This document shows positions 28,040-49,717 of a DNA stretch of 64,000 nt, piece by piece. Under the pieces are notes generated by a model. It saw nothing but the letters and a program-made list of their open reading frames with translations, made no database searches and had not been told where the DNA came from. The first letter of the stretch is position 1, and every line of letters begins with the position of its first letter. The position numbers were made by a program, and so were the translations under genes. The stretch is from an uncultured Planctomycetaceae bacterium (GTDB taxonomy: Bacteria > Planctomycetota > Planctomycetia > Planctomycetales > Planctomycetaceae), in assembly GCA_963815195.1 (NCBI GenBank), contig CAWFGE010000024.1, positions 65,540 through 129,539 on the forward strand. Reading direction: 5' to 3'.

Positions 28040-29109
28040 TCAGCTGGCCGGCTCGCTTTTCCGATCGGTTTTGGGCCCCATGCGATACAGCCGCACGAAG
28101 CCGTCGGCGTGGGCCACGGCCAATTGGGTTTTGTCGGGAAGCAGATCGAGCCCGCGGGCGGCGCTTTTCAGCTTGACGGTGTGAAACGGGATTTCGTCTT
28201 CGGGCTTTGTGAACCAGAGTTCGCCCTTGCCGCTGCGGTCGGCAATCGCGGCGATGAGGAGATCGTCCGGATGAAACCGCACGCCCCAGGCGATGCCTTT
28301 GAGGTTCGCGTCCGACGATTTCACTTGCCGGCGAATTTTGCCCGTGCCCCAGTCGAACACCACGACGATCGGATCCTGGATCCCGGCGAAGGAGTTGACG
28401 ACGTTCGTGATGCCCGCGCTCGCCCATTGGCTGCCGTCGGCCTGGAATGCGAGGTCGCGGGCTCCGCCCATGTCGGCGGCGAATTTTTTGTCGTAGCCCG
28501 TCATCACACTCGCATCAATGCTCTTGGTCCGCCGGCCGGATTTCAGATCCCAGACGTGAATCTGCCCCATCAGGTCCTGCGAAATCAGATGCTCTCCCTG
28601 GGGATGAAAATCGACCCCATACACGTGCCGATCGTGCCCCGCGAATTCGTGGAGCAGTTTCCCATCCGCCAGGTTCCAGACTCTCACGAAGAGATCGTTT
28701 CCGCAGGTGGCGAGCTTTTCGCCGTCCGGGCTGACGCGAACAAACCGCGCGGAGCCTTGATGCGCCTGAATCGTGCGGAGCGGTTGGGCGACGGCGTCCG
28801 AGTTCGACGTGTCCCAAATGCGGATTTCTCCGCCCCAGCAGGCCGTCAGCATCCGCCGGCCGTCCGGCGTGAAATCGATCGAGCGAACCCAGCTTTTGTG
28901 GCCTTTGAGGGGGTTTGCCGTTTGCCGTCCGCGAGGTTCCAGATCTGCACATCGAGGTCTTCCGCGCCCGCGGCTACGAACCGGCCCGCCGGATCCGCGC
29001 GGAGCGTGGTCAGCGGCACCTCATGCTTGAACTCGCGGGTCGGATGCGTCGCTTTGGGATCGATCACGGGGATTTTCGCTGCGATCGCTGGCGGACTTTG
29101 CGGATTCAT
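28040..29109 (-). CDS. WD40-repeat protein, frameshifted near 28915
   Basis: AHQGSARFVRVSPDG, GHDRHVYGVDFHPQG, VRVWN, IHVWD; pieces 28846-29109 and 28040-28852. Confidence 0.85.
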
Positions 29110-30370
29110 GTCAACAACTCCTTGATCGGCCCGGCCGAGGGATCGCCGATCGGAATCGACCGTCCGGGCAGGTCGTGATCGGCCAGGGAATCCAAGCCCA
29201 CCGCCTGCAAGCAGGTGTGGAACAAATGCCGGGCGTCCACTTCGCGCTCGGCGACGGCGGTGCCCGTCTCGTTGGTTTTGCCGATGACCGCGCCGGGCTT
29301 TATGCCACAGCCTCCCAAGACGACCGACCACGCCGTCCCCCAGTGGTCGCGGCCGTAGCGGACGTTGATTTTCGGGGTGCGGCCGAACTCCGAATGAATC
29401 AAAACCAATGTGCTTTCCAAGAGGCCCCGATCCATCAAGTCATCCAGCAACATCGAAAAGGGTCTGTCGAACTCGCCCAGTTGCTCCAGATGAAAATTAA
29501 AATTCTCCGCGTGCGAATCGTAGCCGTGGTGGGTGACTTTGACGCAGGTCACATCGTGTTCCAACAGCGTACGGGCCAGCAAGCAGTAGCGGCCGAAGTC
29601 GTGCTTTCCGTACCGCTCGAGGTCTTTGTTCGAAGCAGCGCCCTCGAAGAGCGCCTTCTGTTTCATGAGTTGGATCGCCTGTTGATGGGACGCATCGTAG
29701 GCTTCGGCGAGCGCTTTGGATCGCCCCTGGGTAAACCGCTGATTGAACAGCGTCCGCAGTTGATCGCGGCGCGTCGCGATCGAGGTGTCGAGCGATTCCG
29801 GCGTGGCGAGATTGGTGGGGGGCTTCACGCCTTCGAGGTTGAGTTGGCCGTATTTCGCGCCAGGAACGCCGACCCGCCGCCCACGTCCTTGAGGCCGCGC
29901 GTCGAGATGTTGACGTAGCCCGGGAGTTCGGCCGTCGGCGCGGAGAGATATTTCGAGGCGACCGCTCCCAAATAGGGATACTCGCCGACCCGCCGGCCCT
30001 TTTCCATAAACTGCCGGCCTTGTTCGTGGTCGTTGATCTTGATGTTGACGCTCCGCACGATCGAAAGCCAATGCATGCGGCGGGCGGTGTGAGGCAGCAA
30101 CTCGGAAATGTGAATGCCCGGAACCGAAGTCGAGATCGCTTGGAACGGCCCGCCGTGCACAGTGCCCGGCTTCGGATCCCAGGACTCCAACTGGCTCACC
30201 CCGCCTTGCAGGAAAACTTGCAGAATCCGTCGTTGCCGGCGTTTGAGTTCCTGAGCCTGGCCGGAATTGCCCAGAAGGCCCAGGCCGACCGCCCCCGCGG
30301 CCGTTCCCGCCAGGAACTGCCGTCGTGCCACCACATGCTCGATCGGCTGGCATCCTCGGTTTCGTCGCAT
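29106..30370 (-). CDS. DUF1501 family protein with Tat-like leader, frameshifted near 29860
   Basis: RRQFLAG, FLQGGVSQLESWDPKP, YDSH, SEFGRTPKIN..GRDHW, GCGIKPGAVIGKT. Confidence 0.92.
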
Positions 30371-30416
30371 GCTGTGCCTTCGCTTTCTGATCGCTTTGGG
30401 ACCTTGTTTGCGAGCC

Positions 30417-31553
30417 CTAATGATTAAACCGAAACTCGGTCGAGCATAACGCCGCCCACACGAGCTGCCGAATGGCCGTCGCGCGGTCGGTTTGATTGTC
30501 TTCCAAAAACTGTGTGATCTGCTGGACCTCCTCGGCTTCCGGCGGCCGGGAGAAGACCGAAAGACAAAACTCCTCGGCCAGCCGCGGACCTTCCAATCCC
30601 TCGAGACGAGCCGTCAAGTTCTGCCCGCTCGGGGCGAGCCAGCTTTGCAATAAGGGACTGTTTCGCAGAAACAACGCCTGATTCGCCGAGGCATTGAACT
30701 GGGAAGTTTGCACGCCTTGAACGCCGAAAAGGCCGGCGAACGTGTTGACATGGCCTTTCAATGCGCCATCTAAGGCTTCTTCCTGCCAAACGGGATCGTC
30801 CACGGGCGGGGAGCCATCCTTGGAAATCTTTTGAGCCTGGGCTTTGAGGTTTTCGAGCGTGTGAGCCGTCAGGCCCGTCGCCTGCATCATGGACCACGCG
30901 AGTTGCTCGGGAGTCAGCGGTTTAAGCAAGGCCACCGCGAAGCGGTCCTCGTTCCCGGCCTGGCGTTCCCCCCGGGATTGGCTGCTCCGCTGATAGGTTT
31001 TGGTCAACGCCAACTCCCGCAACAGAAATCGCAGATCGTACCCGTGCTCGTGAAAGCTGTCGGCCAAGAGTTTGAGTAACTCGGGATGGGAAGGCGGGTT
31101 GGCCGCGTGCCACATGTCGACGGGCTCCACGAAGCCGCGGCCCATCATCAGGGCCCACATCCGGTTGGCGATATTTTGCCGAAACGCCGCGTTCGCGGGA
31201 TCGAGCATCTCCTCGGCCAATTTCAACCGCCGGCTGTAAATCGGCACGCCCCGCTGTTTCTTATCCGGTTTGATGTAATAAGGATCGCCCGCCACGGCCG
31301 GGTCCGGAATCGCCGGCCGGTCCAAAAGCCGCGGAGGGGTTTCTCCAGATTCGTTGGTAAACACCGACGTGAATTTCACCAGGCCCTCGGCCTTTTCGCC
31401 GATGGAGGCCTGTTTGGTCTTGGGATCGGTGAACAGGGAAGCGCGGTGCAGAAAGGCGGAGAGCCCGTAGTAGTGGCGCTGCAAATAGTCTCCGATGAGC
31501 GGATGGTCGTGGCATTGGGCGCATTGCAGATCCCGCCCCAAAAAGATCCGCCC
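30417..31553 (-). pseudogene. DUF1549/DUF1553 planctomycete protein lacking its N-terminal part
   Basis: RIFLGRDLQCAQCHDHP, NIANRMWALMMGRGFVEPVD, PSHPELL..LA, WAALCSTEFRFNH; homology begins abruptly ~80 bp from the neighbouring stop codon. Confidence 0.75.
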
Positions 31554-31635: not shown

Positions 31636-33958
31636 TCAGGATTTTCTTCGTTTGCGGCGTTTGCGGCCGCGCGGTGACGCGGATTTTTTTGGGGCGGATG
31701 GTTCCGGCGGTGAGATTTGGTAGGAATCGGACGGGGTGATTCCCAGCTCTTTCAGGAGGCGCTTCACATCCCCCAATCGGCCCGGTTGGACCAGAAACCA
31801 ATCCGGGGGGATGTGGCCGGCGATCAGCGGGCGAAAGGCCGGGCTGGTCGAGATCGCATCGCGGGCCTCCGTGCGGGTGACTTGAAGCAAGGGGACCTCG
31901 CCCACAAAGGCCGAGATCCGCCCGGTCCAACTTCTGAGAGCCGTCTCCAATAGCGGCGGCGTGGTGTGGGTCAGGTGCGCACCAGCCAGCTCAGCATGTG
32001 GTCGGCGGAGAGGCCTCGGCTCTTGGCGGCCGCGACGGACCGCTGCGTAACGTGCCAACCCTGTTTGTTTTTTCGGCCAGCTGCGCCAGGCGGGCTTGAG
32101 ACACGCTGTCGCGGCCTTTTGTGTCCAAATCGCCGAGTTCGCTGACGGTCCAAACTTTGGCGAGCGCGGCGGCGTGATCTTGGATCGTCCAATTCGCGAA
32201 GGCTTTCGCAGCGGCGGCGGGCGCGAGTTTTGGCAGGAGAAAAAACGACTCCCCCAACTTGCGGCCGGCGTGCCCCTGGGGCAGATCGGTCCCGGGCGGA
32301 GCCGTCGCCAAACTGATGTTGGTCCGCAGAATCAGCGACTCGCGTTTGCCCGCCCATTGCCGAATCAACTTCGCGACATTGTCGGGAAGGGGCGTTTGAC
32401 TTTGCTCGGCCAAAAACGATTGAATCTCTTCCGCAGAAAGCCCCGATTCCAAGCCGCGATAAACGCTTTCCCGGCTCAGGGCAAACGTCTGCACCAAACC
32501 GCCCGCGGAGTTTCGCTCGGCAAAGCGGGAGAGCGTATAGATCTGCCGGGCGTCGGCGTCCTTGAGATAGGCGATGACTTCGTTGTTGGGCTGCACGGTC
32601 AGGAAAGGCGTCTGCGGGCCCTGCTCGGGGATGTCGATGTCCGGAGCCCCAAACACCAGCCGGCCCAATTCCGTCAAGCGAAAGCACAGCCCGCCGGCTT
32701 CGTCGTCGGCGCGCCCGCGTTCGATGAGGCCGAGCGCCCACAACGTCACCCACAAGGCATTGGCCGCCCACTGGCCCTCGAGGCCGAGCCAAAACGCCAC
32801 CCGGCGTTCGTCCCCATCGAGTTTGTCTTTGTTCCAGAGCCGGGAAAACTCCGGCTGCCATGCATAGCTGCTCCAGTAGAAATCGATCTCATCCGTTCGG
32901 GTCACGTGCCAGAGATCGGCGAGAAATGTTTCCAGGTCGAGCCAATCGTTGTCCGTATGGGCGACGCACGATAGCGCCCACATCAAAAGTTCCCGCGCTT
33001 TCCAAAGCCGTCCCGGTTCGATGCGATCGCCGTTATAACCGCTCGAGCGGCCGGGGACCAGGCCGACGCCGTCCTGCCAAAGCGGGCTTCGCATCCAGGC
33101 CCGGACCCACTCTCGGGCCTGAACGGCGCTCGGCTCCTCGAACAGTCTCTGCAGGCGGGGCAGGTCGACCTGGCTGGATTCGAGGTCCAAGCATTCCAAT
33201 TCGAGCAAGAGTTCGTAATACAGGCATTCCCAATCGGGCGGAACCAGGGGTTGTTCCTGAGAACGGTCGGAAATCTGGTTGACTTATGCAGCCGGTTTTG
33301 ACTGGCTTTGGACAGGCGGCCGTTCTTGAGGGTTTTCCAATTTCCCATCGCCTGGAGCGACTCGGCGACTTGCCAGAGTTCCAGCGCCACCTCCGCCGAG
33401 TTGCGAAAGCCCTCGCTTTGAGCACAGGGCGGCTTGGCGGAGGATTTCCACGCCACCACAGGCGCCGGCGGAAGATGCCCATGCAGTTCGGGATGCAAGC
33501 TCAATTGGGGATAGGGCGCGCGATACGACCAGGACTGATAGCCGCCGAAATAACCGCTGGGAAAAACGAGGAGCAGCTTATCCTGGAGACTCGAGACCTT
33601 TTCGTTTCGCGCGAGAGGAGTACCGGGAGTATCGGGAGTCCGCTTCGTCCGGTTCACTCAAGCCCCGCGCTTCGAGTTCCACCGCGAGGAGCGCCCCGGA
33701 AACCGTGGGTCCGAATCGGCTGTAGATCCCCAAAATCGTCCGTTCCGCCGAGGGCAATTTGCGCACCGCCTCCCGCACGGTTTCCGGTTCGCGAAACACT
33801 TCGATCAGGGCGGCGAGACATTCGGCCTTGCGCAATTTCGCCGCGTCCTTGCCCACCCAAAACCGGGCCAATTTTTTTAGCTGATCCGCGCCGCAACGCT
33901 CCAAGTGAATTTCCGTCGGAATTTCCCGGCAGAGCACCGATGCCAGCTTCACTTCCAT
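31636..33958 (-). CDS. Large helicase-associated (XPB N-terminal/Helicase_C_3-like) domain protein, split into four ORFs
   Basis: FLTVQPNNEVIAY...LSRFAE...FALSRESVYRGLESGLSAEEIQSFLAEQSQTPLPDNV..IRQW; second copy WHVTQRSVAAAKSRGLSADHMLSWL...PPLLETALRSW. Confidence 0.75.
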
Positions 33959-34245
33959 TCTCCTTCCAAGCGCTTCGGCGTGTGGCCTCCCGCGAGCAGG
34001 GCGTCTTCCAAGGCTTTGGCTTGTCCCGGGTCCACAACCGCCGCGGTGTCCGAGAGCCGCGCCAACAGAAACCGGCGGATTTTCGGATCGGCCGCCAGTT
34101 CCGCCAACTGGCTGATCTCGGCCACTTCCAACACCGCCGCGCTCAGATGAATCTCCGGCTGCTCCGAACTCAAAAGCGGCAACAGCTCATCCAGCGTTCC
34201 GCGAGCTTTGGCTTCGGGAGATTTGGCTACGCGCTTTCGTCCCAT
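33949..34245 (-). CDS. Small hypothetical protein resembling the C-terminal subdomain of helicase-associated proteins
   Basis: AAVLEVAE...LAADPKIRRFLLARLSDTAAVVDP...LLAGGHTP; overlaps both neighbours. Confidence 0.65.
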   Translation of the reverse strand: MGRKRVAKSPEAKARGTLDELLPLLSSEQPEIHLSAAVLEVAEISQLAELAADPKIRRFLLARLSDTAAVVDPGQAKALEDALLAGGHTPKRLEGEWK

Positions 34246-35932
34246 CGCACTTGACCTGACTCCAAATCGTGGATTTTGTATTGATACCCCTGTTCCGTCA
34301 AAAACAGTTGCCGGTTGAGGGCAAACTCCTGCTCGACGGTGTCCCGGCTGACCAGCGTGTAAAACGTGGCCTGGTTCGCGCCCGGCTTCGGGCGGAGAAT
34401 TCGCCCAGCCGCTGGGCCTCTTCCTGCCGGGATCCATACGTTCCCGAGATTTGAACGGCCACCGAGGCGTCCGGCAAGTCCACCGCGAAATTGGCGACTT
34501 TCGACACCGCCAAATGCTTGAGCGTGCCTTCCCGAAACTGCTGGAACAACTCGTCCCGGCGGCCCTGCCTGGTGGAACCGGTGAGCACGGGGATCTCGAG
34601 CTCCTGGGCCAGCTCGCGAAGCTGCTCCACATACATCCCGATGATCAACACCTGGTCGTCGGCGTGCCGCCTCAAGAGTTCCCGCACCACATCCGACTTG
34701 GCGGGGTTCTCCGAAGCCAGGCGGAACTTTTGCCGCTTGGGTGTGACGGCGTAATCCATCCGCAGTTCCTCAGGCAGCGGCAGGCGGATTTCGTGGCAGA
34801 CCGCCTCGGCGATAAAGCCTTGATGCTCGAGCACCTTCCAGGGCACGTCCACTTTTTTGGGGCCGATCAAGGCGAACACATCGTCCTCGCGGCCGTCTTC
34901 GCGAACCAGGGTCGCGGTGAGGCCCAATCGCCGGCGGGCCTGGAGACCCGCGGTCGCCTGGAACACCGGAGCCGGGAGGAGATGCACCTCGTCATAGATG
35001 ATGAGCCCCCAATTGCGGCCGTCGAACAAATGCAGATGCTCGAACTCGCCCTCCCGGCTGGCGCGCCAGGTGAGAACATTATAAGTCGCCACGGTCACGG
35101 GGCGGATGTCCTTCGTTCGCCCGCTGTACTCGGCGATGTCGTCTTCCGCCAGGTCGGTCTTGTCGAGAATCTCCGCAATCCATTGCCGGGTCGAGGTGAG
35201 GTTGGTCGTGAGGATCAACGTCGAAGCCTGGACTTCCGCCATGCACGCCAAGCCCACGATGGTTTTGCCCGCCCCGCAGGGCAGCACAATCACCCCGGAC
35301 CCGCCGCGGTCCGTTCCGCCCGCGTAGAAGATCTCCGCCGCCTCCTCTTGGTAGTCCCGCAGACGAAACGGGACGCCGCCCGGGGTGGAATCCTTCAGCG
35401 AAATCGGCATCGGTTCGCCGGGCACATAACCGGCCAGGTCCTCCACCGGCCAGCCGACTTTGATCAGAACCTGCTTGAGCCGTCCCCGCTTGAGCGCATC
35501 GACCGCAAACTCGCTGGGCGAGAGCCGCGCTCCCAACATCTGGGCCACTTCGCTTTGCCGAGAAAGTTCTTCCGCAAGCGGCCGGTCGCCCAGGACGAGC
35601 CGCAACCCGTGGTTCGGATCGCGGACCAGTTGCACTTTGCCGAAACGGGCGGCGTAGTCGCCGATCTCCGACTCGACATGCTGCGGCACATCGTATTTGG
35701 CCAGATCGTGGAGGGTCTCCACGATCTCCCCCGCCGACATCCCCGCCGCACAGGCATTCCAGATCGAAAGCGGCGTGATGCGGTAGGTGTGGACGTACTC
35801 GGGCGATTTGACCAACTCCGCAAACCGGGCCAAGGCGTCGCGGGCCTCCCCATAGCGGGGGCTTTGAACTTCGACCAGAACGGTAAAGTCGCTCTGAATA
35901 ATGAGCGGGTTTTCCAAAGACGACATAGGCAC
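34227..35932 (-). CDS. xpb: Bacterial XPB (Ssl2/Rad25) DNA helicase, frameshift near 34400
   Basis: NPLIIQSDFTVLVEV, KSPEYVHTYRITPLSIWNA, LPCGAGKT, DEVH, LGLTATLVREDG, GSRQEEAQRLG then in the shifted frame ILRPK...FLTEQGYQY. Confidence 0.95.
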
Positions 35933-37666: not shown

Positions 37667-40600
37667 ATGTCTCAAGCAACTTTGATCAAGAAATATAACG
37701 CACTCGACAGCTCGTCCAAGGGTATGCTGCAAACGCTGGCTTTGTTGGATGTCCCCTTGCGCCGCACGGATATGGGACGTCTCGTGAAAGACGCGGGCGC
37801 GACCGACGCGAAGGGAAAAAAGATCACCCAGAAAGCCGTCAGCCAATCGATCGACAAACTGCTGAAGGCCGAGATGCTGGTTTCGCCCTGGCATGGGAAT
37901 TATGACATCAATCCCGAAATCCAGGACTGGGCCATTCAGGACTCGATCCGCACGGGGGCGTTTTCCGAGCTGTGCGCGGGCGTGGAGAAACAGATCTCCG
38001 ACCGCTATTACTACTACAGTTCCGGGAATGGGGTGGAACGGCAGTTGCGGATTGCGTTTTACAAAGGCGACGTGGAGCAGGTTCGCTCGCTTCTGGGCCG
38101 GCGGAACCTGGCCGATTATGTGCGGGTGCTCAATCCGTTCGACCGGCGCCTTTTCGACAACTTGAATCCCGCTTCAGAAATTGTTCTTGATCGAAGCGGT
38201 GCCGTCGGTGATTTACAAACCCGACGGGAAAGCGGATCGGGACCTGGCGGCGGCGTTCGACGACTGGATGGCGAAAGACGCCTCGCCGGAGAGCCAGCTT
38301 CTGGCGGCGAGCCTGGACCTGGCCCTCGCGCGGGGCGACATTCCGGCGATTGAGCGGCTGGACGAAGACACGGGCGCAAACTGCCCGAGGTGGCCGGTTG
38401 CCTGGCGCGTTTGCGCGGCGACTTCGAGCAGGCCGAAGCGAATTTCGCGTCCGTTCTGACGGCGGCCAAGCGGAAGAGCAAGCTGGGAGCGGCGGGGCAT
38501 TTGCCGGCGATTTTCGAAATGCTGCTCCTGCTGAAAGTCGGCACGCCCGCGGCTTTGGCGAAGGCGGGAACCCTTGCCAATTCCGCGACCAAAGGTCAGA
38601 ACCGGTTCTATCAGTACGAGGTCGCCGTGGTCAGGGAGGCCATCCGCTTTCGCGAGTCCCCTTCGTCCCCCGCCCGGCTGGCCGCAGGTTTGGACGAACT
38701 CGCCAGGTTTCCGCTCGAGACGCTCCTCGCCGGCTACCTCGCGCAGTGGTTTTTGACGGAGGAGGACTCGAACTTCCACGTGAAGAACCTCACTCAGTCG
38801 GCGTCGGCGTTCGAGTCGGTGGGTCTGGATTGGCTCGCCGCCGAGGCGTATGCCCTCGCCGGGCGGTCGCCGTTGAAGACCGCGGCCGATCAGGCTCAAA
38901 AGAGCGGGGAGATTCACGCGCGATTGAAGACAGCGAGCCTCGCGGATCTCATCGAGCCGGAGCCCCTCTGGCAGCAGTCGCTCGCGGCGATTGCCCGGCT
39001 GGCCGAGGGGGACGCGCCCGCGTCCGCAGCGGCGGAAACAAGCGAACGGCTGATCTGGGAATGGGATCCGCGGCATGGCAGCATTCATCTCGAGCCCTAC
39101 CAGCAAAAACGCACGTCGAGCGGCTGGACCAAGGGCCGCAAAGTCTCGCTGGCCCGGCTTTATGCCGGGTATAACGAACCGGATTTCGCTTTTGTCACGG
39201 ACGAGGACCGGGCGATTTGCCGCTCTTTGGAGATGCACTCCGAACGGAACTACTACGGCTATTCGGAAACTTACGTTGACTTTCAGGATCTGCGCGCGGC
39301 GCGGGCTCTCGTGGGGCACCCGCGGATTTTTCCCGCGGGGGATCGGGAGAATCCGTTCGAGATCGTCGAGCAGTCGCCGAAGCTTACCATCGTCGAGGAC
39401 GACACAAAGCACATCCGCGTGTCGCTCGATCCCTCGCCCAAGCGAAACGACGAAGCCTTCCGCGTGGTCAAGGACGGGCCCCACCGCGTGGCGATCGTGT
39501 TTTTCAGTGATCGGCATATGAAGCTGCACCAGATTCTGGGCGGGGAACTCAAAGTGCCCGCCAAGGCGGCCGCGCAGGTCGTCCAGGCGATCCAGCCGGT
39601 CACGTCGCTGGTCACGGTGCAATCGGAGATCGGGGGCGAGGGCCTTGCCGGGGAACGCGTCGATGCCGACGCCCGGCCGCACGTGCATTTGCTGCCCTAT
39701 CAAAGCGGGCTGCGGATCGAGTTCTTCATCCGGCCGTTCGGCGAAGCGGGCCCATTTTGCCGGCCGGGACAGGGCGGGGCGAACGTGTTCGCCAACATCG
39801 ACGGCCGGGCCCTGACCGCGCGGCGGGATCTGGCCGAGGAACAGAAGCGTCTCGACGAGTTGATCGCGGCCTGCCCGGACATCGCCGCCCGGCTGGAGCA
39901 GGGCGAATCGATCTACTTCCCCACGCCGATTGAGGCCCTGGAGGCGCTGCTTCAATTGGAGGACCTGTTCGCCAAGGACCGGATCGTGATGCATTGGCCG
40001 CAAGGCCGAACGTTGAACCTGGCCGGCCGGGCGGCGGCGAAGCAGTTCCGGCTGCAAATTCGCAAGGACCGCGACTGGTTCGCCGCGTCGGGCGACCTGA
40101 AAGTGGACCCGTCGCTGTCGCTCGATCTCATGCAGTTGATCGATCTCGTCGAGGCGAGCCCCGGGCGGTTCGTCCAGCTCGATGACGGGCGGTTCCTCGC
40201 CCTCACCGAGCAGCTCCGCGACCGGATCGAGGAACTCGCCGCGTACGGTGATCGGCGGGGCAAACAGAACAAGCTGCGGTTTCCCCCGCGCGGGCCATCG
40301 CGCTCGAAGACTTGGGGGACTCGGTCACCCTCAAAGCGGACAAGACCTGGAAGGACTGGATCGGCCGGCTGCACAAGGCGTCGGAAGTCGAGCCGGAAGT
40401 GCCCTCGACGCTCCAGACCGAACTCCGCGACTATCAGCAGGAAGGCTTTTCGTGGCTGGCCCGGCTGGCGGCGTGGGGCATGGGCGGATGCCTCGCCGAC
40501 GACATGGGGCTCGGGAAAACCATCCAGGCGCTCGCCCTGCTTTTGGACCGCGCCGCCGGCGGCCCGGCGCTCGTTGTCGCTCCGACCTCCGTGGCTTTCA

Positions 40601-41787
40601 ACTGGAAGAACGAAGTCCTGCAATTTGCTCCAACGTTAAATGCCCATCTCTTCGGAGAGGAAGACCGGGCCGAGGTCATCAAGAACCTGGGCCCGCGGGA
40701 TCTCGTGATTTGCAGCTACGGGCTCTTGCACACCGAGTCCAAACGGCTCCAAGCGCAAGCCTGGCACACGGTGGTCCTCGACGAAGCCCAGGCGATCAAG
40801 AACATGGCCACGCTCCGCTCGCAGGCCGCCAAGCGACTGACTGCCGACTTCCGGCTGATCATGACCGGCACGCCTTTGGAAAATCATCTGGGCGAGTTGT
40901 GGAACCTGTTCGAATTCATCAACCCCGGGCTGTTGGGCTCGCTCGAAAAATTTCAGCAGCGGTTCGCCGGTCCGATCGAACGCGACGGCTCGCGCGAAGC
41001 GCGTCGGCGGCTGAAAAAGCTGATTCAGCCGTTTCTCCTCCGCCGGACCAAGTCGCAGGTGCTCACGGAACTGCCCTCGCGCACCGAAGTCACGCTGACG
41101 GTCGAACTCAGCGACGAAGAGGCGGCGCTTTACGAAGCCTTCCGGCAGCGGGCGCTCAAGAAATTCGCCGGCGCCGGCGACGCCAGGTCGCAGCATCTGC
41201 AGATCCTCGCCGAGATCATGAAATTGCGGCGGGCCTGCTGCCATCCCCGGCTCGTGCTCGGCGACTCGGAGATTCGCGGATCGAAGCTGGCGTTGTTCTC
41301 GGAGACCTTGGACGAGATTCTCGATAACCATCACAAGGTGCTCGTCTTCAGCCAGTTTGTCGACCACCTGGCGATTCTCCGCGAGGAACTGGACCGCAAA
41401 GGCGTCTCCTACCAGTATCTCGACGGCAGCACGCCCGCCCGCCAGCGGAAGCAGCGCGTGGAAGCCTTCCAGGCGGGCGAAGGCGACGTGTTTCTGATCA
41501 GCCTCAAAGCCGGCGGCCTGGGCCTCAACCTGACGGCGGCCGACTATGTGATCCACATGGACCCCTGGTGGAACCCGGCCGTCGAGGACCAGGCCTCCGA
41601 CCGCGCCCACCGCCTGGGCCAACAGCGGCCGGTGACGATTTACCGCTTCATCACGAAAGGCACGATCGAGGAACGCATCACAAAGCTCCACGCCAGCAAA
41701 CGCGACCTGGCCGACAGCCTCCTGGAAGGCGCCGACGTCACCGGCAAACTCTCCGCGGACGAATTGCTCAAACTCATCCGCGAATAA
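37667..41787 (+). CDS. SNF2/SWI2-family helicase, split into four ORFs by frameshifts
   Basis: LRDYQQEGFSWL, CLADDMGLGKT, DEAQAIKN, TGTPLENHLGELW, FSQF, SLKAGGLGLNLTAAD, DPWWNPAVEDQASDRAHRLGQ. Confidence 0.95.
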
Positions 41788-41857: not shown

Positions 41858-42928
41858 CTACCAAAGCCCGTGGACGCCGAAGAACGGGGCCAATGTGAAT
41901 CCGTGCTTTTGCGCCATCGCCCAGATTTCCTCGATTCGCTCGGGAACGATGTTTCCGCGGCCTTGGGAAAACGGCTCGTAGCGGCCCTCGAGTGCCAAGA
42001 GTCCCGCTTCCAGCATGCAGCCGTGCACAATGTTCGGTTGGGGGAAACCGTAGTAGGTCAACCGCAGGTCGGGTCCGGACAGAATTTCGCCCCGAACACA
42101 GCCCAGGCCGCCGAAGAACAACCGCCGACTTGACGGCGCGGAGGTTCCCGCGGCGATGTTTCTGGGATAAGCCGCATCGCAGATCAAGGCGTCCGCCTTG
42201 AAATCCGAGAGGGGAAGTTCTGGCCCCGGCAGACTCGCCGCGGCAAGGACGATGTCCCCCATCGGCAGGAACGCGCGGAGATCGGTGGAGCACTCGACGG
42301 CCGCCGGGCTGCGTTTCAGTTCCGCGGCCAGGATTTCCAAACGAGCCGGGTTTCGCGCGACGAGAAGCAATCGGCCCGCCGTCTGTGCCAAATACCGAGC
42401 GCAGCCGCTCCCAACATCGCCGGTCGCTCCCACAATCAATACGCTGGACCGGCTGAGATCCCGGCCCGTCCGACGAGCGGCCGCTTCGAGGCCCTTGACA
42501 ATTAAGGCGGCCGTCAGCGTGTTGCCTGTGGTGAGCGCGGTCTTCACTCCATCGAGCGAGACGTTCTCCGATTCGAGCGCGATCGAGGTGAATCCGCCCA
42601 GAGCCGCGATCCCTGCCCCTTCCCTCTCGGCGGCGGCCACAGCGGAGCGGGTCTTCTCGACGATCGTTTTGAAAGACCGTGCCGCGAGCTGATCCGGCGT
42701 GATGAAGGTTTCGATATAGGCCCCGCGCGCTTCGTGGCCCAGACGCGATTGAATCTTGAACCGCGACACCGTCCGCGGGGGAATCCACGAAACGAATCTC
42801 GTCCACCTCGGAATCCGGCACCGCGGGGAGATGCGGGCGCGAAGTTCGCGGAGCAGGCGCGCGAGCTTCCCGCCGCAATCGACGTGGCCGATCATGGCGA
42901 AATCTACACGGGCAGATTGGCGATCCAT
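41858..42928 (-). CDS. aar: Long-chain acyl-ACP reductase (aldehyde-forming, AAR)-like protein; start uncertain (42928 or 42895)
   Basis: FAMIGH, ALGGFTSI, TTGNTLTA, GATGDVGS, DAAYPRN, HGCMLEAGLLALEG...FSQGRGNI...KHGF match cyanobacterial AAR motifs including the catalytic Cys. Confidence 0.88.
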   Translation of the reverse strand: MDRQSARVDFAMIGHVDCGGKLARLLRELRARISPRCRIPRWTRFVSWIPPRTVSRFKIQSRLGHEARGAYIETFITPDQLAARSFKTIVEKTRSAVAAAEREGAGIAALGGFTSIALESENVSLDGVKTALTTGNTLTAALIVKGLEAAARRTGRDLSRSSVLIVGATGDVGSGCARYLAQTAGRLLLVARNPARLEILAAELKRSPAAVECSTDLRAFLPMGDIVLAAASLPGPELPLSDFKADALICDAAYPRNIAAGTSAPSSRRLFFGGLGCVRGEILSGPDLRLTYYGFPQPNIVHGCMLEAGLLALEGRYEPFSQGRGNIVPERIEEIWAMAQKHGFTLAPFFGVHGLW

Positions 42929-43644
42929 TGGAGCGTCTCTTCCCCCGGGAGTCCCAAACGGTCCAACGTCTGCAAATAGAAATTCAAAGCCCGCCCGCGA
43001 ACCGCCCCGATCTCCAGATGCACATGGCCCAGGGAATGTTTGACGCATTCGCCGCTGCACAATCCGCAATGCCCGTGGGGATCCTCGCGGGCCACCATCT
43101 CGGCGAGCACCGTCATCACGGCGAGATGCACCTCGTGGACTTTCCGCGTGAAGGCGGCGGGATCCTTGAGGTGTTCCGCTTCCAGAAAGGCAATCACGTG
43201 TTCCAGGTGGCCTTTTTCTTCCTCGGCAATCGCCCGGAAGACCCGGGCCAAACCGGCGGGGGCGGCGTCGGCGACCGTTTCATAGATCGAGACCGCGAAC
43301 GACTCCAGCATGAGTTCCTGAATCAACAGACAGGCCGTGAGGTCGCCCCGGTCCACGTAATCCAGAAACGCCTCGCGGATCCGCCGCCAGTACGGCGCCG
43401 CAAGATCGACCACCACGTCCACGCCCAGGTCGTCGGCGGCTTTCTGAAACGCGAGCGCATGGGTCTTTTCGCTCTCGGCGTGCTCGACCGCTTCCACCTT
43501 TTCCTCGACGGTCTCGACCAAAGCGACCAGCGAGGCGAAATTCTGCATGCCGACGACTTCCCCCGTGACGGCCTGCGAAAGGATGTCGGCATAGACGCTC
43601 CGCTGCTCTCGGGTCAATTGGTCCTGGGATTCTGAGAAGGGCAT
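42904..43644 (-). CDS. ado: Aldehyde-deformylating oxygenase (fatty aldehyde decarbonylase, ADO)-like ferritin-fold di-iron protein
   Basis: Ligand pattern GEVVG / ESEKTH / LESFA / EEKGH plus the ADO-typical ACLLIQELMLESFAVSIY; GGAG RBS before ATG 43644; directly upstream of aar. Confidence 0.88.
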   Translation of the reverse strand: MPFSESQDQLTREQRSVYADILSQAVTGEVVGMQNFASLVALVETVEEKVEAVEHAESEKTHALAFQKAADDLGVDVVVDLAAPYWRRIREAFLDYVDRGDLTACLLIQELMLESFAVSIYETVADAAPAGLARVFRAIAEEEKGHLEHVIAFLEAEHLKDPAAFTRKVHEVHLAVMTVLAEMVAREDPHGHCGLCSGECVKHSLGHVHLEIGAVRGRALNFYLQTLDRLGLPGEETLQWIANLPV

Positions 43645-43687: not shown

Positions 43688-46069
43688 TCATTCGCCCTTG
43701 AGGGAAAAAAACGTGTAATGAAATCCCGAATCATCCATGATGGCATACCCGCCCGAAGGCGTGAAGAAGCGTTTGATGGCGTCGAACTCCGGCAGTTTTC
43801 TGCCGTCGAGCGCTTGAGTCAGTCCGGCGAACAGAGTGGTCGTGAATTTCCCCTCGAGGATTCCGGGGAGCCGGCCCGTTTTCAGCGCCTGGAACAACAG
43901 CCGCTTATGCTCCGGGGTGTGGAAAGAGATCAAGCTGCACTCGGCGGGGAAATGTGCGGCCACGCGTTGGAAGTCCGGGCTCTCGGCCAATCCCGGCCCC
44001 TCGTGATTCAGGACTTTCTCCAAAAGCTCCACATGCGTCGCCAGAAACACATGCGTGTCCGTAACGGTGAAAGCGACTTGGCCCACAGGCACCGGCTGAT
44101 CGGGGCCGAGGCGTTTTTCCAACTGGCCGCCATAGTCCCTCAGAATGATCGTCTTCCCGCCGGGCGTTTTGCGCTTCGTCGTGATCGGACTCGCCTTTTC
44201 CGTTGCCTGGAGGAGCAACAATTGCAGCGTCTTAACGGACGTGTCGCCTCCTGGGATGTGTCGACGTTCCCAGGCCAGGAGCATCCGCGGGACGGCAAAA
44301 CCCCGGCTTTCCGTGAGATCGGTGACGATCGTCAGCCTCTCGCCCAGGGCATCCAGGGAACTCAACTCCGGCAAGTGTCTTAAAAGCGCAATCAATTCCC
44401 GCGTCTGCGTGTGCTTCCAGCGGAAGGTGCAATAACTGGTGATGTCCGCGGGGACCCACGGTTCCGGCTGCAAAGGCCCCGGCGGAAAATCGAGATAGTG
44501 GAACAATGCCGGCCGGTGCGTCGTGTGGACGACCACGTGGCCTACCGTGTCAAATTGATCCTGTGCGATCGAAAAAGAGAATCCGCCACCTTGAAAAAGC
44601 TGCGCTCCCAAAAAGCCATCCGCGAGGTTGAACTGGGGATTCGAATACTTGGCTTTCAGGAACTTCCACAGTTGCGCGAGGTCGATAAAAATCTCGAAAT
44701 CCCCCGCACCGCCAGTCGACTTACGAAACTCCTTAAGCCGCGGATTGTCCGCCAAAAACGCTGCGGGCGGCTTCTCCAGCCAGGTGTGGAGTTTCTCGGC
44801 CTCGTCGGGATTCTCCGCACCAAATAGCACGTGATTGTCCGTAATCGCCAGATGCATCTGGTCCGCGGCGCCGGTTCGATCAACGTCCTTAAGCATCCGA
44901 GAGATGCGGGCCCGGCTGCCGGGGATGTCGGAAAGAAAATACCACACCGGCTTCATTTCGCGAAGTTGCTTCTCAGCATCCCTCTCAGCATCCAATTCCT
45001 TCCGCGTCCGAGCCTTTTTTCGTTTGCCTTTGGAACCAGCCGTTTCTGCGAGCGCCTGCCAGTCCGGGAGGCCCAGGCCGATGCTAATTTGGCCGGTGTG
45101 GGCGGCGCAGAGATTGACCAGATCGACGCCGGTCTGCTGCCGGAGTTCCGCGCGGCCCGTTTGGCTGGACTCCAAGAACTGCGAAACATAGGGCTGCATG
45201 GCCGGGTCCTGGCAGAGTTGGACGCCCCGCAGTTCATTCAGGCGTTCTTTGAACTCTCCGTAGCGGCTGACGTTGACGAACAAAACCACGCTCTCGGGCA
45301 GGGAGTGCTCAAAGGGCGGCGCCTCTTTTTGCATCTCAAAGCTCAGCACCGGCCGCTCTCCCGGTTTTGGATGCACAAGCGCCGCGGATTGTTTGAAGCC
45401 GGGACGGTCGGCGAGCACTTTCACCCAGTCCTCGCCGTTCGGGCGCATCGCGAACAGCCAGGCTCTGCCGTCCGGCAACGTCAGCATGTGCCCGGCGCCT
45501 TGAACGTGAAATGTCATCTCCGGCACGCTGCCCTCAATGGCAAACACCGCCCACTCGATGGTTTCCGGCTCGCCCGCGGCGTTCGCCGGATTCGGGGCAA
45601 GCTCCATTTTCGAGACGACCTGGCCCGCGTGCAGAAAATTGACCGTCGCGCCGCCGGCCATTCCCGGTTCCGGTTCGTGGAGCAGGATTTTCGTCTTCCC
45701 CTCGGGATCCTTTTGAAGTGTCGCCGGGCCTGCCACGCGGAGTTCAACCCCTTCAGGCAGGAGGCCGACGTTATGGATTTCGACGACCGGAGGAAGTTTC
45801 GGTTTCGGTTTCGGTTTCGGCTCGGGCTCCCGTGGGGGTCCGTCTTTTGGTTCGAGGACGGCCGTCGTTTCTTCCGCCGAGGTTTTCCGGGTCGGTTCGG
45901 GATTCTCGGGATGTTTTGCTGCCGCGGTATCGGGCGGACTTTCCGCGGAGGGTGTCTCGGACCAGGTCTTTGCCAAGTACAAGCCGCCGATCGCCAGGCA
46001 CAGAGCGACCTGGATCACCAGGATCCGGGGAAGCCAAACCGTGAGTCGCTCTGAGAATCTTTTTTGCAT
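43688..46069 (-). CDS. Membrane-anchored exported hypothetical protein, possibly DUF3352-like
   Basis: N-terminal TM, Pro/Lys linker, LPESVVLFVNVS, LADNPRLKEF, PEPWVPADITSY, LPEFDAIKRFFTPSGGY. Confidence 0.7.
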   Translation of the reverse strand: MQKRFSERLTVWLPRILVIQVALCLAIGGLYLAKTWSETPSAESPPDTAAAKHPENPEPTRKTSAEETTAVLEPKDGPPREPEPKPKPKPKLPPVVEIHNVGLLPEGVELRVAGPATLQKDPEGKTKILLHEPEPGMAGGATVNFLHAGQVVSKMELAPNPANAAGEPETIEWAVFAIEGSVPEMTFHVQGAGHMLTLPDGRAWLFAMRPNGEDWVKVLADRPGFKQSAALVHPKPGERPVLSFEMQKEAPPFEHSLPESVVLFVNVSRYGEFKERLNELRGVQLCQDPAMQPYVSQFLESSQTGRAELRQQTGVDLVNLCAAHTGQISIGLGLPDWQALAETAGSKGKRKKARTRKELDAERDAEKQLREMKPVWYFLSDIPGSRARISRMLKDVDRTGAADQMHLAITDNHVLFGAENPDEAEKLHTWLEKPPAAFLADNPRLKEFRKSTGGAGDFEIFIDLAQLWKFLKAKYSNPQFNLADGFLGAQLFQGGGFSFSIAQDQFDTVGHVVVHTTHRPALFHYLDFPPGPLQPEPWVPADITSYCTFRWKHTQTRELIALLRHLPELSSLDALGERLTIVTDLTESRGFAVPRMLLAWERRHIPGGDTSVKTLQLLLLQATEKASPITTKRKTPGGKTIILRDYGGQLEKRLGPDQPVPVGQVAFTVTDTHVFLATHVELLEKVLNHEGPGLAESPDFQRVAAHFPAECSLISFHTPEHKRLLFQALKTGRLPGILEGKFTTTLFAGLTQALDGRKLPEFDAIKRFFTPSGGYAIMDDSGFHYTFFSLKGE

Positions 46070-46240: not shown

Positions 46241-46830
46241 ATGCCACTCTTTCAGCGAAGCGTTTTCCCCGTTACAGCTTGTCGCGCTGCTCCTGATCGC
46301 GGCGACGCTGGCTTCGTTTCTTTGGGCGAGTTTGTGGTACTTCCGCCAAGATCGCGGGTGGAATTCGCGGAAATTCATCTACAAGATTTCCATCTATGTG
46401 TGCATGGGCCTCAACGCCGGGCTGGTGCTGTTTTTCCCGCGGTTCGCGTTCTGGAGCCTGCTCGGCGGCAGCGTGCTCTTGGCGATCTCCCTCGGTCTGT
46501 TCTGGGGGGCGGTCGCCGCTCATCGCGGATCGAGGCCGAAGTTCGCCTTCGACAAGGCCGAGGCGGCACAGCTCGCAGCCGGCGGTCCCTTACCGCTTCG
46601 TTCGCCATCCTTTTTACGTCTCGTTTCTGTTCGCCTCGGCCGCGGGAGCCCTGATTGCAGGCTGGGCCGAACTGCTCCTCACGACCATCTGGCTGGCCTG
46701 GTTCTACGTTCGCGCGGCCAAGACAGAAGAGGCGTTCCTGCTCTCGGGCAAAGCGGGCGAGGAATACCGCCGCTATTGCGAGCACACCGGTCGTTTTCTT
46801 CCGCGGCTCCCGAGCCGGCCGCGCAAGTAG
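46241..46830 (+). CDS. ICMT/PEMT-family membrane methyltransferase, frameshifted
   Basis: Several TMs, GPYRFVRHPFY (across the shift), EEAFL..GEEYRRYCEHTGRFLPRL. Confidence 0.82.
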
Positions 46831-47644
46831 AAGACGGGACTCCAAGGCGCGACTTCTGAACATGTACAAAACACAGATTTCACGCCGGGGCTCGATTCCG
46901 ACACAAACGTCACACGAGATTCGGCCCACGAGCGCGAGAGAAACCCCAGGGCGCAAGTTCGCGACCCGGGTGCGCGAGTTCGCGACCCAGGGGCAGCGAA
47001 AGGAGCCGGCCCCGAGCCGGTCATAGGTTGTCTCAGGTTCTTAGCACTCCTGTCCGCGTGCCGCGGACGACGGTTTCGAGGTTCGGATTGGTGGTGAGGG
47101 CCTCCATGAATTTCGGGTCGGCCGACCCGCCGAGCCGTTTATCGACTCAGTCCGATGTCTTTTTCTTCGAAGAACGCTTCGTGGATTTCCGCGGGGCGGG
47201 CGGCGGAGCGTTTGGTGGATTGTCGGGGGCGGCGGCGCGGACGGGGGGAGCATGTCGATTCCGAAAATGTCCGACAGGTCTTCGCTACGCAGCAAACTCG
47301 CCCTCATCGCGCGAGGCCAGAGAAATCGACAAACGCCCCGAAGGAGTGAGAACCAATTCCATTTCGTTTGCGTTCCCACATCCTGATCGCTGAAGTCTTC
47401 CCCGCCAAAATATCGCGAACAGGCCCGCCCCTTCAACAGAGAGCCGTGGAACCGAACACCAACGCCGCCTTCGCTGGGAAAAATCCACGCCTGAGACGGA
47501 GAGACGTTAGTTAAAGAAAAGGATCATCTCGAGGGGCAAGACTGCTTGACAGCGGAAACCTCAGGCCGGCATGATTCACGGATCGAAGGGTCCAAGTTCC
47601 ACATCACAACGGTTTACTTTGTCGTTTTGAATTACGGCGATGCA

Positions 47645-49717
47645 ATGAACCCCAGCCCGCGAATCTTCATCTCCGCGACGAGTGCGGAATTCAAAACGGC
47701 AAGACAGAAGGTGGCGAACGTCTTGCACTTTCTGGGGTACGAGGCAGATCTGCAAGAAATCTTCGGTACCGAGCCCGGCGACCTTCGCCAAATGCTTCGG
47801 CAAAAGATCGACAATTGTGACGGCCTCATTCAAATCGTTGGCTTGGGGTATGGTGCAGAACCGCCCACACTTGATCCCGAGTTCGGGCGAGTTTCCTACA
47901 CACAATTTGAGCTTCTTTATGCTCGCCAACAGAATAAGAAGACTTGGCTGATTTTTGCCACCGAAGAATCCTACCGTGATACGCCAATCGATGCGCTCGA
48001 CTTGCCGCTCGATCGAACGCACGACACGCCCGACCGTCACCAGGCCAAGCGGCGGGATCTTCAATCTGCATTTCGCAGCCAACTTGCCAATGATGAACAT
48101 CTTAAATGGACGTACTCGAATGATGCCGAACTGGAAAATCTGGTCCTCAGGCTTCGCAGCGATTCCGAAGAACTTCGAAAAGAATTCCGCTCCTGGCAAG
48201 GGAGCGTTCTGGAAGGATTCCAGGATCTACATCGGCAAATCGATGCATCAAACCACCGTTCCTGGTTTTTTCGGATTACCACGCTTGTCCTTCTGATCTG
48301 CGTCGTGGTTTGGGTTACCCGTCACACCGCGCGTCAGACGGAGGAACGCGCTCAGCCCATCGCCGACAGGGCGAAAACGGTCGATTTGGACCTTGGGATT
48401 CCTCCAAAGGAGAGCCAAAAACAAACCGCGGAACGAAAGCCCCTGTTGAGCTATCCATTCCAAGTCGAGTATTCCGCATCGAAAGCCAATGGTGTGCTGA
48501 ATATCTCTCCCAAATCTCCTTACTTTGATGCATTAGAATCGGGTGACGTGATTCCAACGGTCGGAAGGGCTCCTTATTTTGAGTGGGCTTATCCTCGACT
48601 CTCTGCCAAGGTGCATAATGCCGCGGAAAATGACTGCTACATTACGGAGGCCGTGATCAACGTAAAATCGAGCCGGATCAACCACGATCCCCTATTCGTT
48701 GCCCAGTCCCGGGGTGGAGGTTACGTCTCGATTATCAATGAAGGATGGGGTCCGCCCCTTCTTAATGAGGAGGGGACACTTGAGGCGACATTGGAATTGG
48801 GTGACAATCACGGAGGATTCATTGAAAGACAGGTCGCCCTGGACGAATTCTTTACGATTGATTGCTCGAAGTGCTTAACGCAGAAAGACCTGAGATTGGC
48901 CCGGAATCAGCCCGAGGGGCGACCATTTAAGGCCTCCATCCATTACTCCACTCCCTCAGGAAAAACGAAGACCTTTCGTTGCGAGGGGATGGTCGATTTC
49001 TCTCCGCCGCCTGCGCCCTACTTTCCACCAACGCGCGAACCATACGACGTTTTCTTACCCGCCGGGAAAGAGGGATTCCAAACCATCGTTCCCCTTTCTC
49101 AAGTGATCCCCGCTGGCGGCGTCGATCACTTCGAAATCCGAATTGCTACTGACAAATCCGCACAATTTGAGCTTCAGATTCAGTTTAAGGATGTTTCGGG
49201 CAACATCATTGCGGATCGGCAAGTTGCCTTAACTACATTCATCGCCCCATCCGGAAAGGTGCGCGGGACTGTGCCGCCTCGCAAACGAGTGAGACTCGGA
49301 GAGCCAAAAACCCTCGAGAAAATGCAAGTGACTTTGGTCAATGTGGCACTGGCCAACAAGGACCCTTTCACGGAGGTCATGCATGCGTTCGTTGAGGTGA
49401 AGAATCGGGGGGACAGCGAACTTCTATGGCAACTGGATGACATGGAGGAAAAGACCGCCTCGCCTCGCTTCTTGCAAATGACAGATGTCGCACTCAACGT
49501 GTGTAACGAGAACGGTGAGTACGGTGTGCCCATTCCCGCGCGTCCCGACGAGCCCTGGGAGTGTCGAATTCCAGCCGGACAGTCAAATCGCCTGGTCTTT
49601 GAATTCAGTGGGTTTCCGTCGGATTTGGGCGATTTTTTCATCTCCATGAAATTGCGCGGTCGCTCCTCGTTTGACGAAGCGGCATTTCGAGCATCCTTCC
49701 CTCCAACTCCAAAATGA
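47645..49717 (+). CDS. DUF4062-domain protein with a single TM and an unrecognised beta-rich C-terminal region
   Basis: RIFISATSAEFKTARQ...IDNCDGLIQIVGLGYGAEP...SYTQFELLYARQQNK; TM FFRITTLVLLICVVVWV. Confidence 0.82.
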   Translation: MNPSPRIFISATSAEFKTARQKVANVLHFLGYEADLQEIFGTEPGDLRQMLRQKIDNCDGLIQIVGLGYGAEPPTLDPEFGRVSYTQFELLYARQQNKKTWLIFATEESYRDTPIDALDLPLDRTHDTPDRHQAKRRDLQSAFRSQLANDEHLKWTYSNDAELENLVLRLRSDSEELRKEFRSWQGSVLEGFQDLHRQIDASNHRSWFFRITTLVLLICVVVWVTRHTARQTEERAQPIADRAKTVDLDLGIPPKESQKQTAERKPLLSYPFQVEYSASKANGVLNISPKSPYFDALESGDVIPTVGRAPYFEWAYPRLSAKVHNAAENDCYITEAVINVKSSRINHDPLFVAQSRGGGYVSIINEGWGPPLLNEEGTLEATLELGDNHGGFIERQVALDEFFTIDCSKCLTQKDLRLARNQPEGRPFKASIHYSTPSGKTKTFRCEGMVDFSPPPAPYFPPTREPYDVFLPAGKEGFQTIVPLSQVIPAGGVDHFEIRIATDKSAQFELQIQFKDVSGNIIADRQVALTTFIAPSGKVRGTVPPRKRVRLGEPKTLEKMQVTLVNVALANKDPFTEVMHAFVEVKNRGDSELLWQLDDMEEKTASPRFLQMTDVALNVCNENGEYGVPIPARPDEPWECRIPAGQSNRLVFEFSGFPSDLGDFFISMKLRGRSSFDEAAFRASFPPTPK

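Follow-up and report, generated by a model that had tools for sequence, protein, structure and literature searches.

An ADO-like and AAR-like gene pair in an uncultured planctomycete belongs to a separate, widespread clade of heterotrophs

Can a heterotrophic bacterium make alkanes with the pair of enzymes that cyanobacteria use? Reviews and surveys, among them PMC3903477 and PMC6361979, describe the AAR/ADO route as special to cyanobacteria. A contig from an uncultured soil bacterium of the Planctomycetaceae (assembly GCA_963815195.1, contig CAWFGE010000024.1) nevertheless encodes an ADO-like di-iron protein next to an AAR-like acyl-thioester reductase. We analyzed a 64-kb stretch of DNA (64,000 nucleotides, positions 65,540 to 129,539) that forms the terminal part of this 129.5-kb contig; we call this stretch the window, and all coordinates below refer to it. 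The likeness of the two proteins to ADO and AAR is far beyond chance. The pair belongs to a separate clade that is widespread among heterotrophs and already automatically annotated, to which we add a cysteine loop, an operon context, rarity among planctomycetes and a 793-aa partner protein.

The ADO-like and AAR-like proteins

Both open reading frames (ORFs) lie where the initial annotation had placed them, intact, adjacent and co-oriented on the minus strand, with the following features:

42904..43644, minus strand: ADO-like di-iron protein (P0001), 246 aa, ferritin-like fold, ligands E29, E59, H62, E114, E143 and H146
41858..42928, minus strand: AAR-like acyl-thioester reductase (P0121), 356 aa, TIGR04058 at 160.8 bits, PDB 6jzq at E 2e-42
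42404-42430, minus strand: nucleotide loop of the AAR-like protein, G167ATGDVGSG
42017-42019, minus strand: catalytic C304 of the AAR-like protein
43039..43083, minus strand: subfamily-specific Cys loop, residues 188-202 of the ADO-like protein (DPHGHCGLCSGECVK), between helix 6 and helix 7

The ADO-like protein keeps all six di-iron ligands that had been read from its sequence, in the order E/E/H/E/E/H. In alignments each of them falls on a ligand position of solved cyanobacterial ADOs, and the stretch from ligand 2 to ligand 6 is free of insertions and deletions. None of the six varies across 81 loci, a set made up of the window and the best 80 of the 166 species found to carry a relative in a scan of one genome per species. 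The same 81 loci all retain C105, H149 and H173. The AlphaFold2 model (pLDDT 94) finds only ADO structures among its top 26 Foldseek matches (E ~1e-8, ~235 columns, TMq 0.80, TMt 0.85-0.91), and shares with cyanobacterial ADO (PDB 2OC5, 4RC5 and 6JZU chain B) an eight-helix ferritin-like fold (TMq 0.80, TMt 0.88), the ligand spacing, a gene placed directly upstream of an AAR-type gene, and a partner complex predicted at a similar face. Unlike the fold, the sequence similarity stops near residue 172: a PDB sequence search retrieves ADO chains at E ~1e-12 over residues 13-157 only, and a family profile built from 28 members loses the PDB ADOs beyond about position 172. We conclude that the modeled protein has an ADO fold and an ADO-type active-site scaffold, in a sequence far outside the curated cyanobacterial family.

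An alternative upstream ATG at 43746 would lengthen the ADO-like protein by 34 residues to a 280-aa ORF; we place the start at 43644 because 27 aligned homologues are mostly 246-247 aa long and begin at the shorter position. Rubrerythrin (PF02915) has a di-iron four-helix bundle as well, and matches residues 147-194 of the 280-aa ORF weakly (32.9 bits), but the window protein lacks a C-terminal rubredoxin domain (CxxC...CxxC), its Cys loop is internal and of another pattern, and its nearest structures are ADOs.

The AAR-like protein aligns with cyanobacterial AAR (6JZQ) end to end, residues 40-345 against 28-335, with the N-terminal 40 residues of the window protein unaligned. It keeps the Rossmann motif GATGDVGSG (from G167, with C176 following), which corresponds to the GATGDxG NADPH loop of the cyanobacterial enzyme, and the catalytic C304, both of which had been recognized in the initial annotation. 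C304 aligns with the catalytic Cys of 6JZQ, named C294 (SeAAR) in the structural paper (PMC7089970). The nucleotide-loop motif and C304 are invariant in 28 of 28 aligned homologues, and GxTGDxG is present in all but one of 78 neighboring AAR-like ORFs (77/78). We rejected a shikimate-dehydrogenase or short-chain dehydrogenase/reductase identity: local Rossmann-fold matches reach at most 36 bits versus 161 bits for AAR. The N-terminal reductase domain of PigE, from prodigiosin synthesis (NF053554), is also related (1.7e-29, and PDB 4ppm at 8e-17), but PigE is fused to an aminotransferase and unpaired with a di-iron protein, and the window protein is much closer to cyanobacterial AAR. Both proteins are true homologues of ADO and AAR. 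Among family profiles, the ADO-like protein passes PF11266 (Ald_deCOase) with 57.7 bits against a cut-off of 28, covering profile positions 7-148 of 218 only, and the AAR-like protein is best matched by AAR families.

The two genes travel together. An AAR-like gene adjoins the ADO-like gene in 78 of the 81 loci (BLASTP with the window AAR-like protein, E<=1e-20), and the two are co-oriented in 77 of the 78; the three loci with no match comprise a contig ending 13 nt past the ADO gene, a truncated AAR ORF, and an AAR region in three pieces. The AAR-like ATG lies inside the 3' end of the ADO-like gene, and this 25-nt overlap recurs in 38 of the 81 loci (longest-ORF calls), which points to translational coupling. 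Each gene is single-copy in the source genome. One relative, P0304 (538 aa), has ADO-like stretches followed by an AAR-like segment at 389-517, and is either a natural fusion or a frameshift merging overlapping genes.

Structure prediction supports binding between the two proteins. The pair scores an ipSAE of 0.65, versus 0.00 for the best of three controls; 116 of 157 solved complexes and 2 of 215 mismatched pairs reach this mark, counts that are only approximate here as our own alignments were used. At least 74% of contacts agree between runs, with a partner pLDDT of at least 86. The predicted interface joins residues 213-243 of the ADO-like protein, in its subfamily-specific C-terminal helices, to residues 26-56, 99, 102 and 284-285 of the AAR-like protein, and subfamily-invariant AAR-like residues, for example P50 and R52, fall within it. 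In the solved cyanobacterial complex, the AAR N-terminal domain binds acidic ADO helix 7 through its basic R73-H91 helix and R118, and Y23/Y26 mark the opening of the acyl tunnel (PMC7089970). The predicted face is broadly that of the solved AAR-ADO complex (6JZU), with AAR segments partly different from R73-H91 and R118; the R73-H91 region is a minor part of the predicted window interface. Because a similar complex has already been solved, the score shows likeness rather than proof, and the pass may reflect likeness only.

The ADO-like protein is set apart by the loop between helices 6 and 7. All 81 loci have CxxCxxxC (C193, C196, C200) and K202, and position 188 is D in 63 of them and C in 16, giving the pattern C/D-x4-C-x2-C-x3-C. 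Cyanobacterial ADO, by contrast, is without this ~15-20-residue loop (CxxCxxxC-x-K): in our alignment it is deleted, leaving no Cys, in both cyanobacterial representatives, P0350 and P0385. Other non-cyanobacterial branches have variants of the loop, such as C-x4-C-x2-C-x6-C. Three or four Cys/Asp residues within 13 residues beside a di-iron center suggest an added metal or iron-sulfur site, and we propose the loop as an extra metal or redox site. Its pattern resembles the C-x4-C-x2-C with which the motif of plant-type [2Fe-2S] ferredoxins begins. Rubrerythrin has its own Cys-ligated iron site for electron relay; by analogy with it, the Cys loop could relay electrons to the di-iron site.

Distribution, ancestry and gene neighborhoods

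Whether such homologues were already catalogued had been left open by the initial annotation; they are, several of them as "fatty aldehyde decarbonylase" at JGI and "long-chain fatty aldehyde decarbonylase" at NCBI. A protein search with the ADO-like protein returned 210 relatives at E<=0.001, the best 120 of which are 53-82% identical to it, and a search with the AAR-like protein returned 2019 at the same threshold, some of them named "fatty aldehyde-generating acyl-ACP reductase". Eight phylum labels occur among the relatives (Planctomycetota, Ignavibacteriota, Acidobacteriota, Gemmatimonadota, Bacteroidota, Myxococcota, Verrucomicrobiota and Pseudomonadota), and the clade's hosts are heterotrophs, in contrast to those of cyanobacterial ADO. 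Cultured carriers include Tamlana haliotis, Lutimonas vermicola and a Robiginitalea sp. Across 1.84 billion cluster representatives, an exhaustive phmmer search found only 145 relatives at E<=0.001, and 21 at E<=1e-30.

From these 145 we built a tree of 30 full-length, unbroken representatives, dropping fragments and frameshift-like rows, with groups set from motifs and family scores before tree building. The window subfamily forms a clade with support of 100/99, with a sister "Cys4" group (98/98), apart from true cyanobacterial ADO (100/100, on a stem of length 1.84). Two further groups were recovered, a distant CxxCxxxC group (100/100) and one that includes fusions to ArsM-like methyltransferases (98/92). 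In the latter, P0274, P0322 and P0324 (561-605 aa) have an N-terminal ArsM-like class I SAM methyltransferase fused to a C-terminal ADO-like di-iron domain, and form their own clade with unfused relatives. The view that the ADO-like protein represents a separate clade is borne out by this tree; we dropped recent transfer from cyanobacteria, as the tree places the protein outside the cyanobacterial ADO clade.

To describe gene neighborhoods, we clustered all ORFs of at least 90 aa from the 81 loci and scanned representatives with Pfam. Three arrangements emerged. In the first, the order is GNAT (~350 aa), ADO, AAR and DUF3419 (PF11899, the BtaA family), in some loci with a fatty-acid desaturase after them (for example L028:4888-9864); it occurs in Bacteroidota, Gemmatimonadota, some Acidobacteriota, Verrucomicrobiota, Pseudomonadota and Ignavibacteriota. 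In the second, seen in Acidobacteriaceae and Thermoanaerobaculia, ADO and AAR come after GntR and ABC transporter genes (with DUF4386 and DinB in some cases), and PadR sometimes follows them; this coupling to GntR and an ABC transporter is consistent with a product that leaves the cell. In the third, in Planctomycetota and Myxococcota, ADO and AAR stand alone. The source genome (94.6% complete) has neither a DUF3419 gene nor a member of this GNAT family, in a search where a positive control genome scored 3e-71 and 2e-141. Because the pair stands without GNAT or DUF3419 both in the source genome and in a Myxococcaceae genome, it is self-sufficient. Two metagenome-assembled genomes (MAGs) labeled Schlesneria sp. 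do encode a high-scoring, BtaA-like DUF3419 protein (392 bits), on contigs other than the pair's (G042:C258:23503-24663 and G043:C752:20-1180).

The pair in Planctomycetaceae

The source genome (8.87 Mb in 25 contigs, 2.8% estimated contamination) is that of a planctomycete, as had been proposed from marker genes: it belongs to the same GTDB family as the NCBI-labeled Schlesneria MAGs, and the window holds members of the DUF1501, PSD1 and PSCyt2 families. Within this family the pair is rare. A scan of 398 family genomes found the ADO-like gene in 3, from 2 of 92 genera (a fourth match, at E 1e-4, is not a member); it is absent from 3 other genomes of the same genus, and 0 of 400 other Planctomycetota genomes sampled have it at E<=1e-20. 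The nearest genomes with the pair are the two Schlesneria sp. MAGs (71% and 68% identity), and the window ADO-like protein groups with theirs in a family tree (SH-aLRT 98). The region of three genes formed by the pair and the gene upstream is compositionally ordinary, lying at the 49th percentile of tetranucleotide distance among 2203 4-kb genome windows, with a GC content of 0.60-0.63 versus 0.597 genome-wide. We therefore read it as a rare acquisition of long standing, by now native in composition, and not as a chimera. DNA synteny with three same-genus genomes consists of short 67-82% matches of at most 131 bits, mostly in the SNF2 helicase region, leaving insertion borders unmappable. Reads are neutral on chimerism: the only run found to match, a soil metagenome with 27% of the words, gave contigs of 172-343 nt at depth 2-4, none crossing a gene border by at least 31 nt, and two further runs matched conserved helicase motifs only.

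Two neighboring genes lie upstream of the pair:

43688..46069, minus strand: membrane-anchored protein P0241, 793 aa, whose stop lies 43 nt upstream of the ADO-like start
46314..46824, plus strand: PEMT/ICMT-like membrane methyltransferase gene, divergent, split over two frames

In the 793-aa protein, a membrane anchor at the N-terminus is followed by a disordered Pro/Lys/Glu linker, then by a beta-sandwich region (PEGA in orthologues) and an alpha/beta region, distant paralogues of which touch DUF3352. Orthologues (46-47% identity over ~700 aa, or 48-49% in a whole-genome search) lie directly upstream of ADO in both Schlesneria MAGs, while the three same-genus genomes lacking the pair have no more than a paralogue of ~580 aa at 23-28% identity. 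Only 4 orthologues (43-62% identity) were found among 5.8 billion proteins; three of them lie on contigs that match in length (15458, 15083 and 6684 nt) those with the closest ADO and AAR matches, and by our inference these are the same contigs. This co-inheritance with the pair suggests that the protein belongs to the module. Scans with Pfam and NCBIfam gave no match to it, and Atlas scores reach only 0.82, for DUF3352 and DUF2138. Its AlphaFold2 model is weak (pLDDT 60), and the best Foldseek match, to the lipid-binding lipoprotein TP0453 (E 6e-4, TMt 0.41), is a lead only. We speculate that the 793-aa protein handles a hydrophobic product outside the cytoplasm.

The PEMT/ICMT-like gene (Pfam PEMT 26.6 bits, ICMT 23.4 bits) was recognized by tblastn with its MAG orthologues, which match 46314-46589 in frame +3 and 46522-46824 in frame +1. 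These orthologues are intact, at 207 and 210 aa, and the order PEMT-like gene, large protein, ADO, AAR is common to the two independently assembled Planctomycetaceae MAGs. In the window the split gene is a pseudogene or reflects an indel error, and its link to the pair is uncertain. A contig from the soil run has a 1-nt deletion at 46252. Across 41.0-47.5 kb, a promoter scan gave no promoter-like site, and the number of terminator-like sites (14) did not clearly exceed the shuffled expectation (8.9, standard deviation 2.9).

Several other features of the window are worth recording. A 749-aa ORF at 38390-41787 (plus strand) has no Pfam match and a low-complexity tail, and overlaps a 491-aa SNF2/Helicase_C ORF (start 40312) by 328 nt in a different frame; the two may be a single long SNF2-family gene broken by a frameshift. 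Adjoining the SNF2 gene, at 31991-35932 (minus strand), are two Helicase_C_3 ORFs, one of which also has ERCC3/RAD25/XPB and ResIII matches, and together these may form a helicase-rich repair or defense cluster. At 29106-31541 (minus strand) lie the genes with DUF1501, PSD1 (DUF1553) and PSCyt2 (DUF1549) families, whose PS- prefix denotes planctomycete-specific; the PSD1 ORF opens with only the last 32 positions of PSCyt2, and this gene may be truncated or frameshifted. A 723-aa protein at 47546-49717 (plus strand) combines a DUF4062 domain at its N-terminus with a transmembrane stretch and a large C-terminal region without assigned family.

Proposed reaction and its alternatives

What, then, might the pair do? 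Given homology, fold, conserved ligands and catalytic residues, strict pairing and a predicted complex, our best reading is an acyl-thioester reductase coupled to an aldehyde-consuming di-iron oxygenase; the substrate, the product and the roles of the Cys loop and the 793-aa protein we infer as follows. The AAR-like protein would load a long-chain acyl group from acyl-ACP or acyl-CoA onto Cys304 and, with NAD(P)H as reductant, convert the thioester to a fatty aldehyde, to be handed directly to the ADO-like protein bound at the AAR-like N-terminal domain. Using O2 and external electrons, the ADO-like protein would then oxidize the aldehyde; removal of C1 would yield a Cn-1 alk(a/e)ne and formate, as in cyanobacteria. 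The Asp/Cys-Cys-Cys-Cys loop may hold a metal or iron-sulfur center that relays electrons to the di-iron site, and in Planctomycetaceae the membrane-anchored 793-aa protein may handle the hydrophobic product beyond the cytoplasm. By analogy with the cyanobacterial enzymes, alk(a/e)ne plus formate is the most likely outcome, at a probability that we put at roughly 0.45.

The initial annotation's proposal of alkane production is not supported by our analysis, and a number of observations weigh against it. Both proteins fall below the cut-offs of the curated equivalog families: the ADO-like protein scores 58.3 bits on TIGR04059 (EC 4.1.99.5) versus the required 222.65, over profile positions 6-150 of 220 only, where the cyanobacterial representatives P0350 and P0385 reach 389 and 199 bits, and the AAR-like protein scores 160.8 bits on TIGR04058 (EC 1.2.1.80) versus 449.7, over positions 34-335 of 339. 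Identity to solved ADOs is 18-20% by structure superposition, and the last ~75 profile positions, the C-terminal third of the ADO-like protein, have no sequence match to cyanobacterial ADO; this third and the Cys loop are the subfamily's own. Most relatives sit in GNAT/DUF3419 operons, and branches within the same clan are fused to methyltransferases. A search of sequencing runs listed no RNA run with the locus, and we found no expression or product data; a literature search, with most subscription journals and the supplements of cited papers outside its coverage, found no biochemical characterization or assay of the ADO-like subfamily. Finally, fold and ligands do not fix the reaction, because BioE of Weeksellaceae does other chemistry: this cADO-like di-iron enzyme of ~20% identity cleaves C14-C18 acyl-CoA/ACP to a pimeloyl thioester, and is, like the window protein, a non-cyanobacterial cADO-like protein; in BioE the fold has been recruited beyond alkane synthesis (PMC12704756).

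These observations lend themselves to a second explanation, which we consider possible though less probable than alkane formation: the same pair releases no free alkane, and instead makes a functionalized product, for example an n-1 alcohol, an n-1 aldehyde or a chain altered by hydroxylation or desaturation, which serves as precursor of a specialized polar or amino lipid, finished by GNAT, DUF3419 and the desaturase in other phyla and by other enzymes or the 793-aa protein in planctomycetes. The order GNAT-ADO-AAR-DUF3419(-desaturase) is conserved over six phyla, with GNAT in the same operon as the pair in 50 of the 81 loci, DUF3419 in 46 and the desaturase in 15, and has the look of a lipid pathway yet to be described. 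This arrangement is the main argument that the product may be something other than a plain alkane, since it is not obvious what an acyltransferase and a SAM-dependent transferase would do with an inert hydrocarbon. The subfamily's own C-terminal third and Cys loop fit a changed product, as do the diversification of reactions among cADO-like enzymes that BioE exemplifies (PMC12704756), and the sister branches fused to methyltransferases. Weighed against this, the source genome has neither DUF3419 nor this GNAT, and its pair needs a use without them; no known lipid fits; and the active-site ligands and their spacing remain those of cyanobacterial ADO.

BioE also raises a more specific alternative, in which the ADO-like protein would itself be of BioE type, cleaving long acyl-CoA/ACP, for example to a pimeloyl thioester for biotin, with the AAR-like protein unrelated or accessory. 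BioE is most similar to cyanobacterial ADO, at ~20% identity, with six analogous ligands (E26, E53, H56, E125, E155 and H158 in EmBioE), but acts alone, its gene beside bioF/D and a MocR regulator (BioL) (PMC12704756). The window ADO-like protein is equally distant from cyanobacterial ADO, but it has an AAR partner that is nearly universal (78/81 loci), and neither bio genes nor a MocR-type regulator were seen among the ORFs scanned from 23.9 to 60 kb. Ligand spacing differs as well: the third and fourth are 52 residues apart in the window protein (H62 to E114), a stretch that aligns with cyanobacterial ADO without insertion or deletion, and 69 apart in EmBioE by its published numbering. The Weeksellaceae that bear BioE belong to the Flavobacteriales. 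PF11266 found no further match over 250 other Flavobacteriales genomes, a sample in which the presence of Weeksellaceae is unconfirmed. We regard a BioE-type reaction as very improbable.

Least credible of all is that the locus arose by chimeric assembly, comes from a contaminant contig or is a functionless remnant in decay: the pair is missing from 3 same-genus and 394 of 397 other family genomes and two neighboring genes look frameshifted, but both ORFs are intact with every conserved residue kept, their composition is native (49th percentile, GC near the genome mean), the same gene order recurs in two independent MAGs with whose ADO-like proteins that of the window groups (SH-aLRT 98), and estimated genome contamination is 2.8%.

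Returning to alkane formation, its parts can be joined into one picture: a self-contained alkane pathway of heterotrophs, in which an Fe-S or Cys-ligated iron center in the loop feeds the di-iron site, so that photosynthetic ferredoxin would not be needed; bacteria of eight or more phyla, rare soil planctomycetes among them, would be an unrecognized biogenic alkane source, and the 793-aa protein, binding lipid, would place the hydrocarbon in the envelope. As a whole this picture is doubtful, and we think it unlikely that every part of it holds.

We suggest that the locus matters whichever product is made. Metagenome surveys of hydrocarbon genes count K14331 as alkane production without biochemistry, and report a "fatty aldehyde decarbonylase" on a Flavobacteriaceae contig (PMC10176705, PMC13170169); such surveys would score this heterotroph clade as "ADO". 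The question is directly testable, because cultured carriers exist. If the pair forms alkanes, then soils and sediments contain a source of alkanes other than phototrophs, and an ADO that may have its own electron relay becomes available to biotechnology. Otherwise, gene counts for the hydrocarbon cycle drawn from this KO and Pfam family are inflated, and there is a new lipid pathway to discover.

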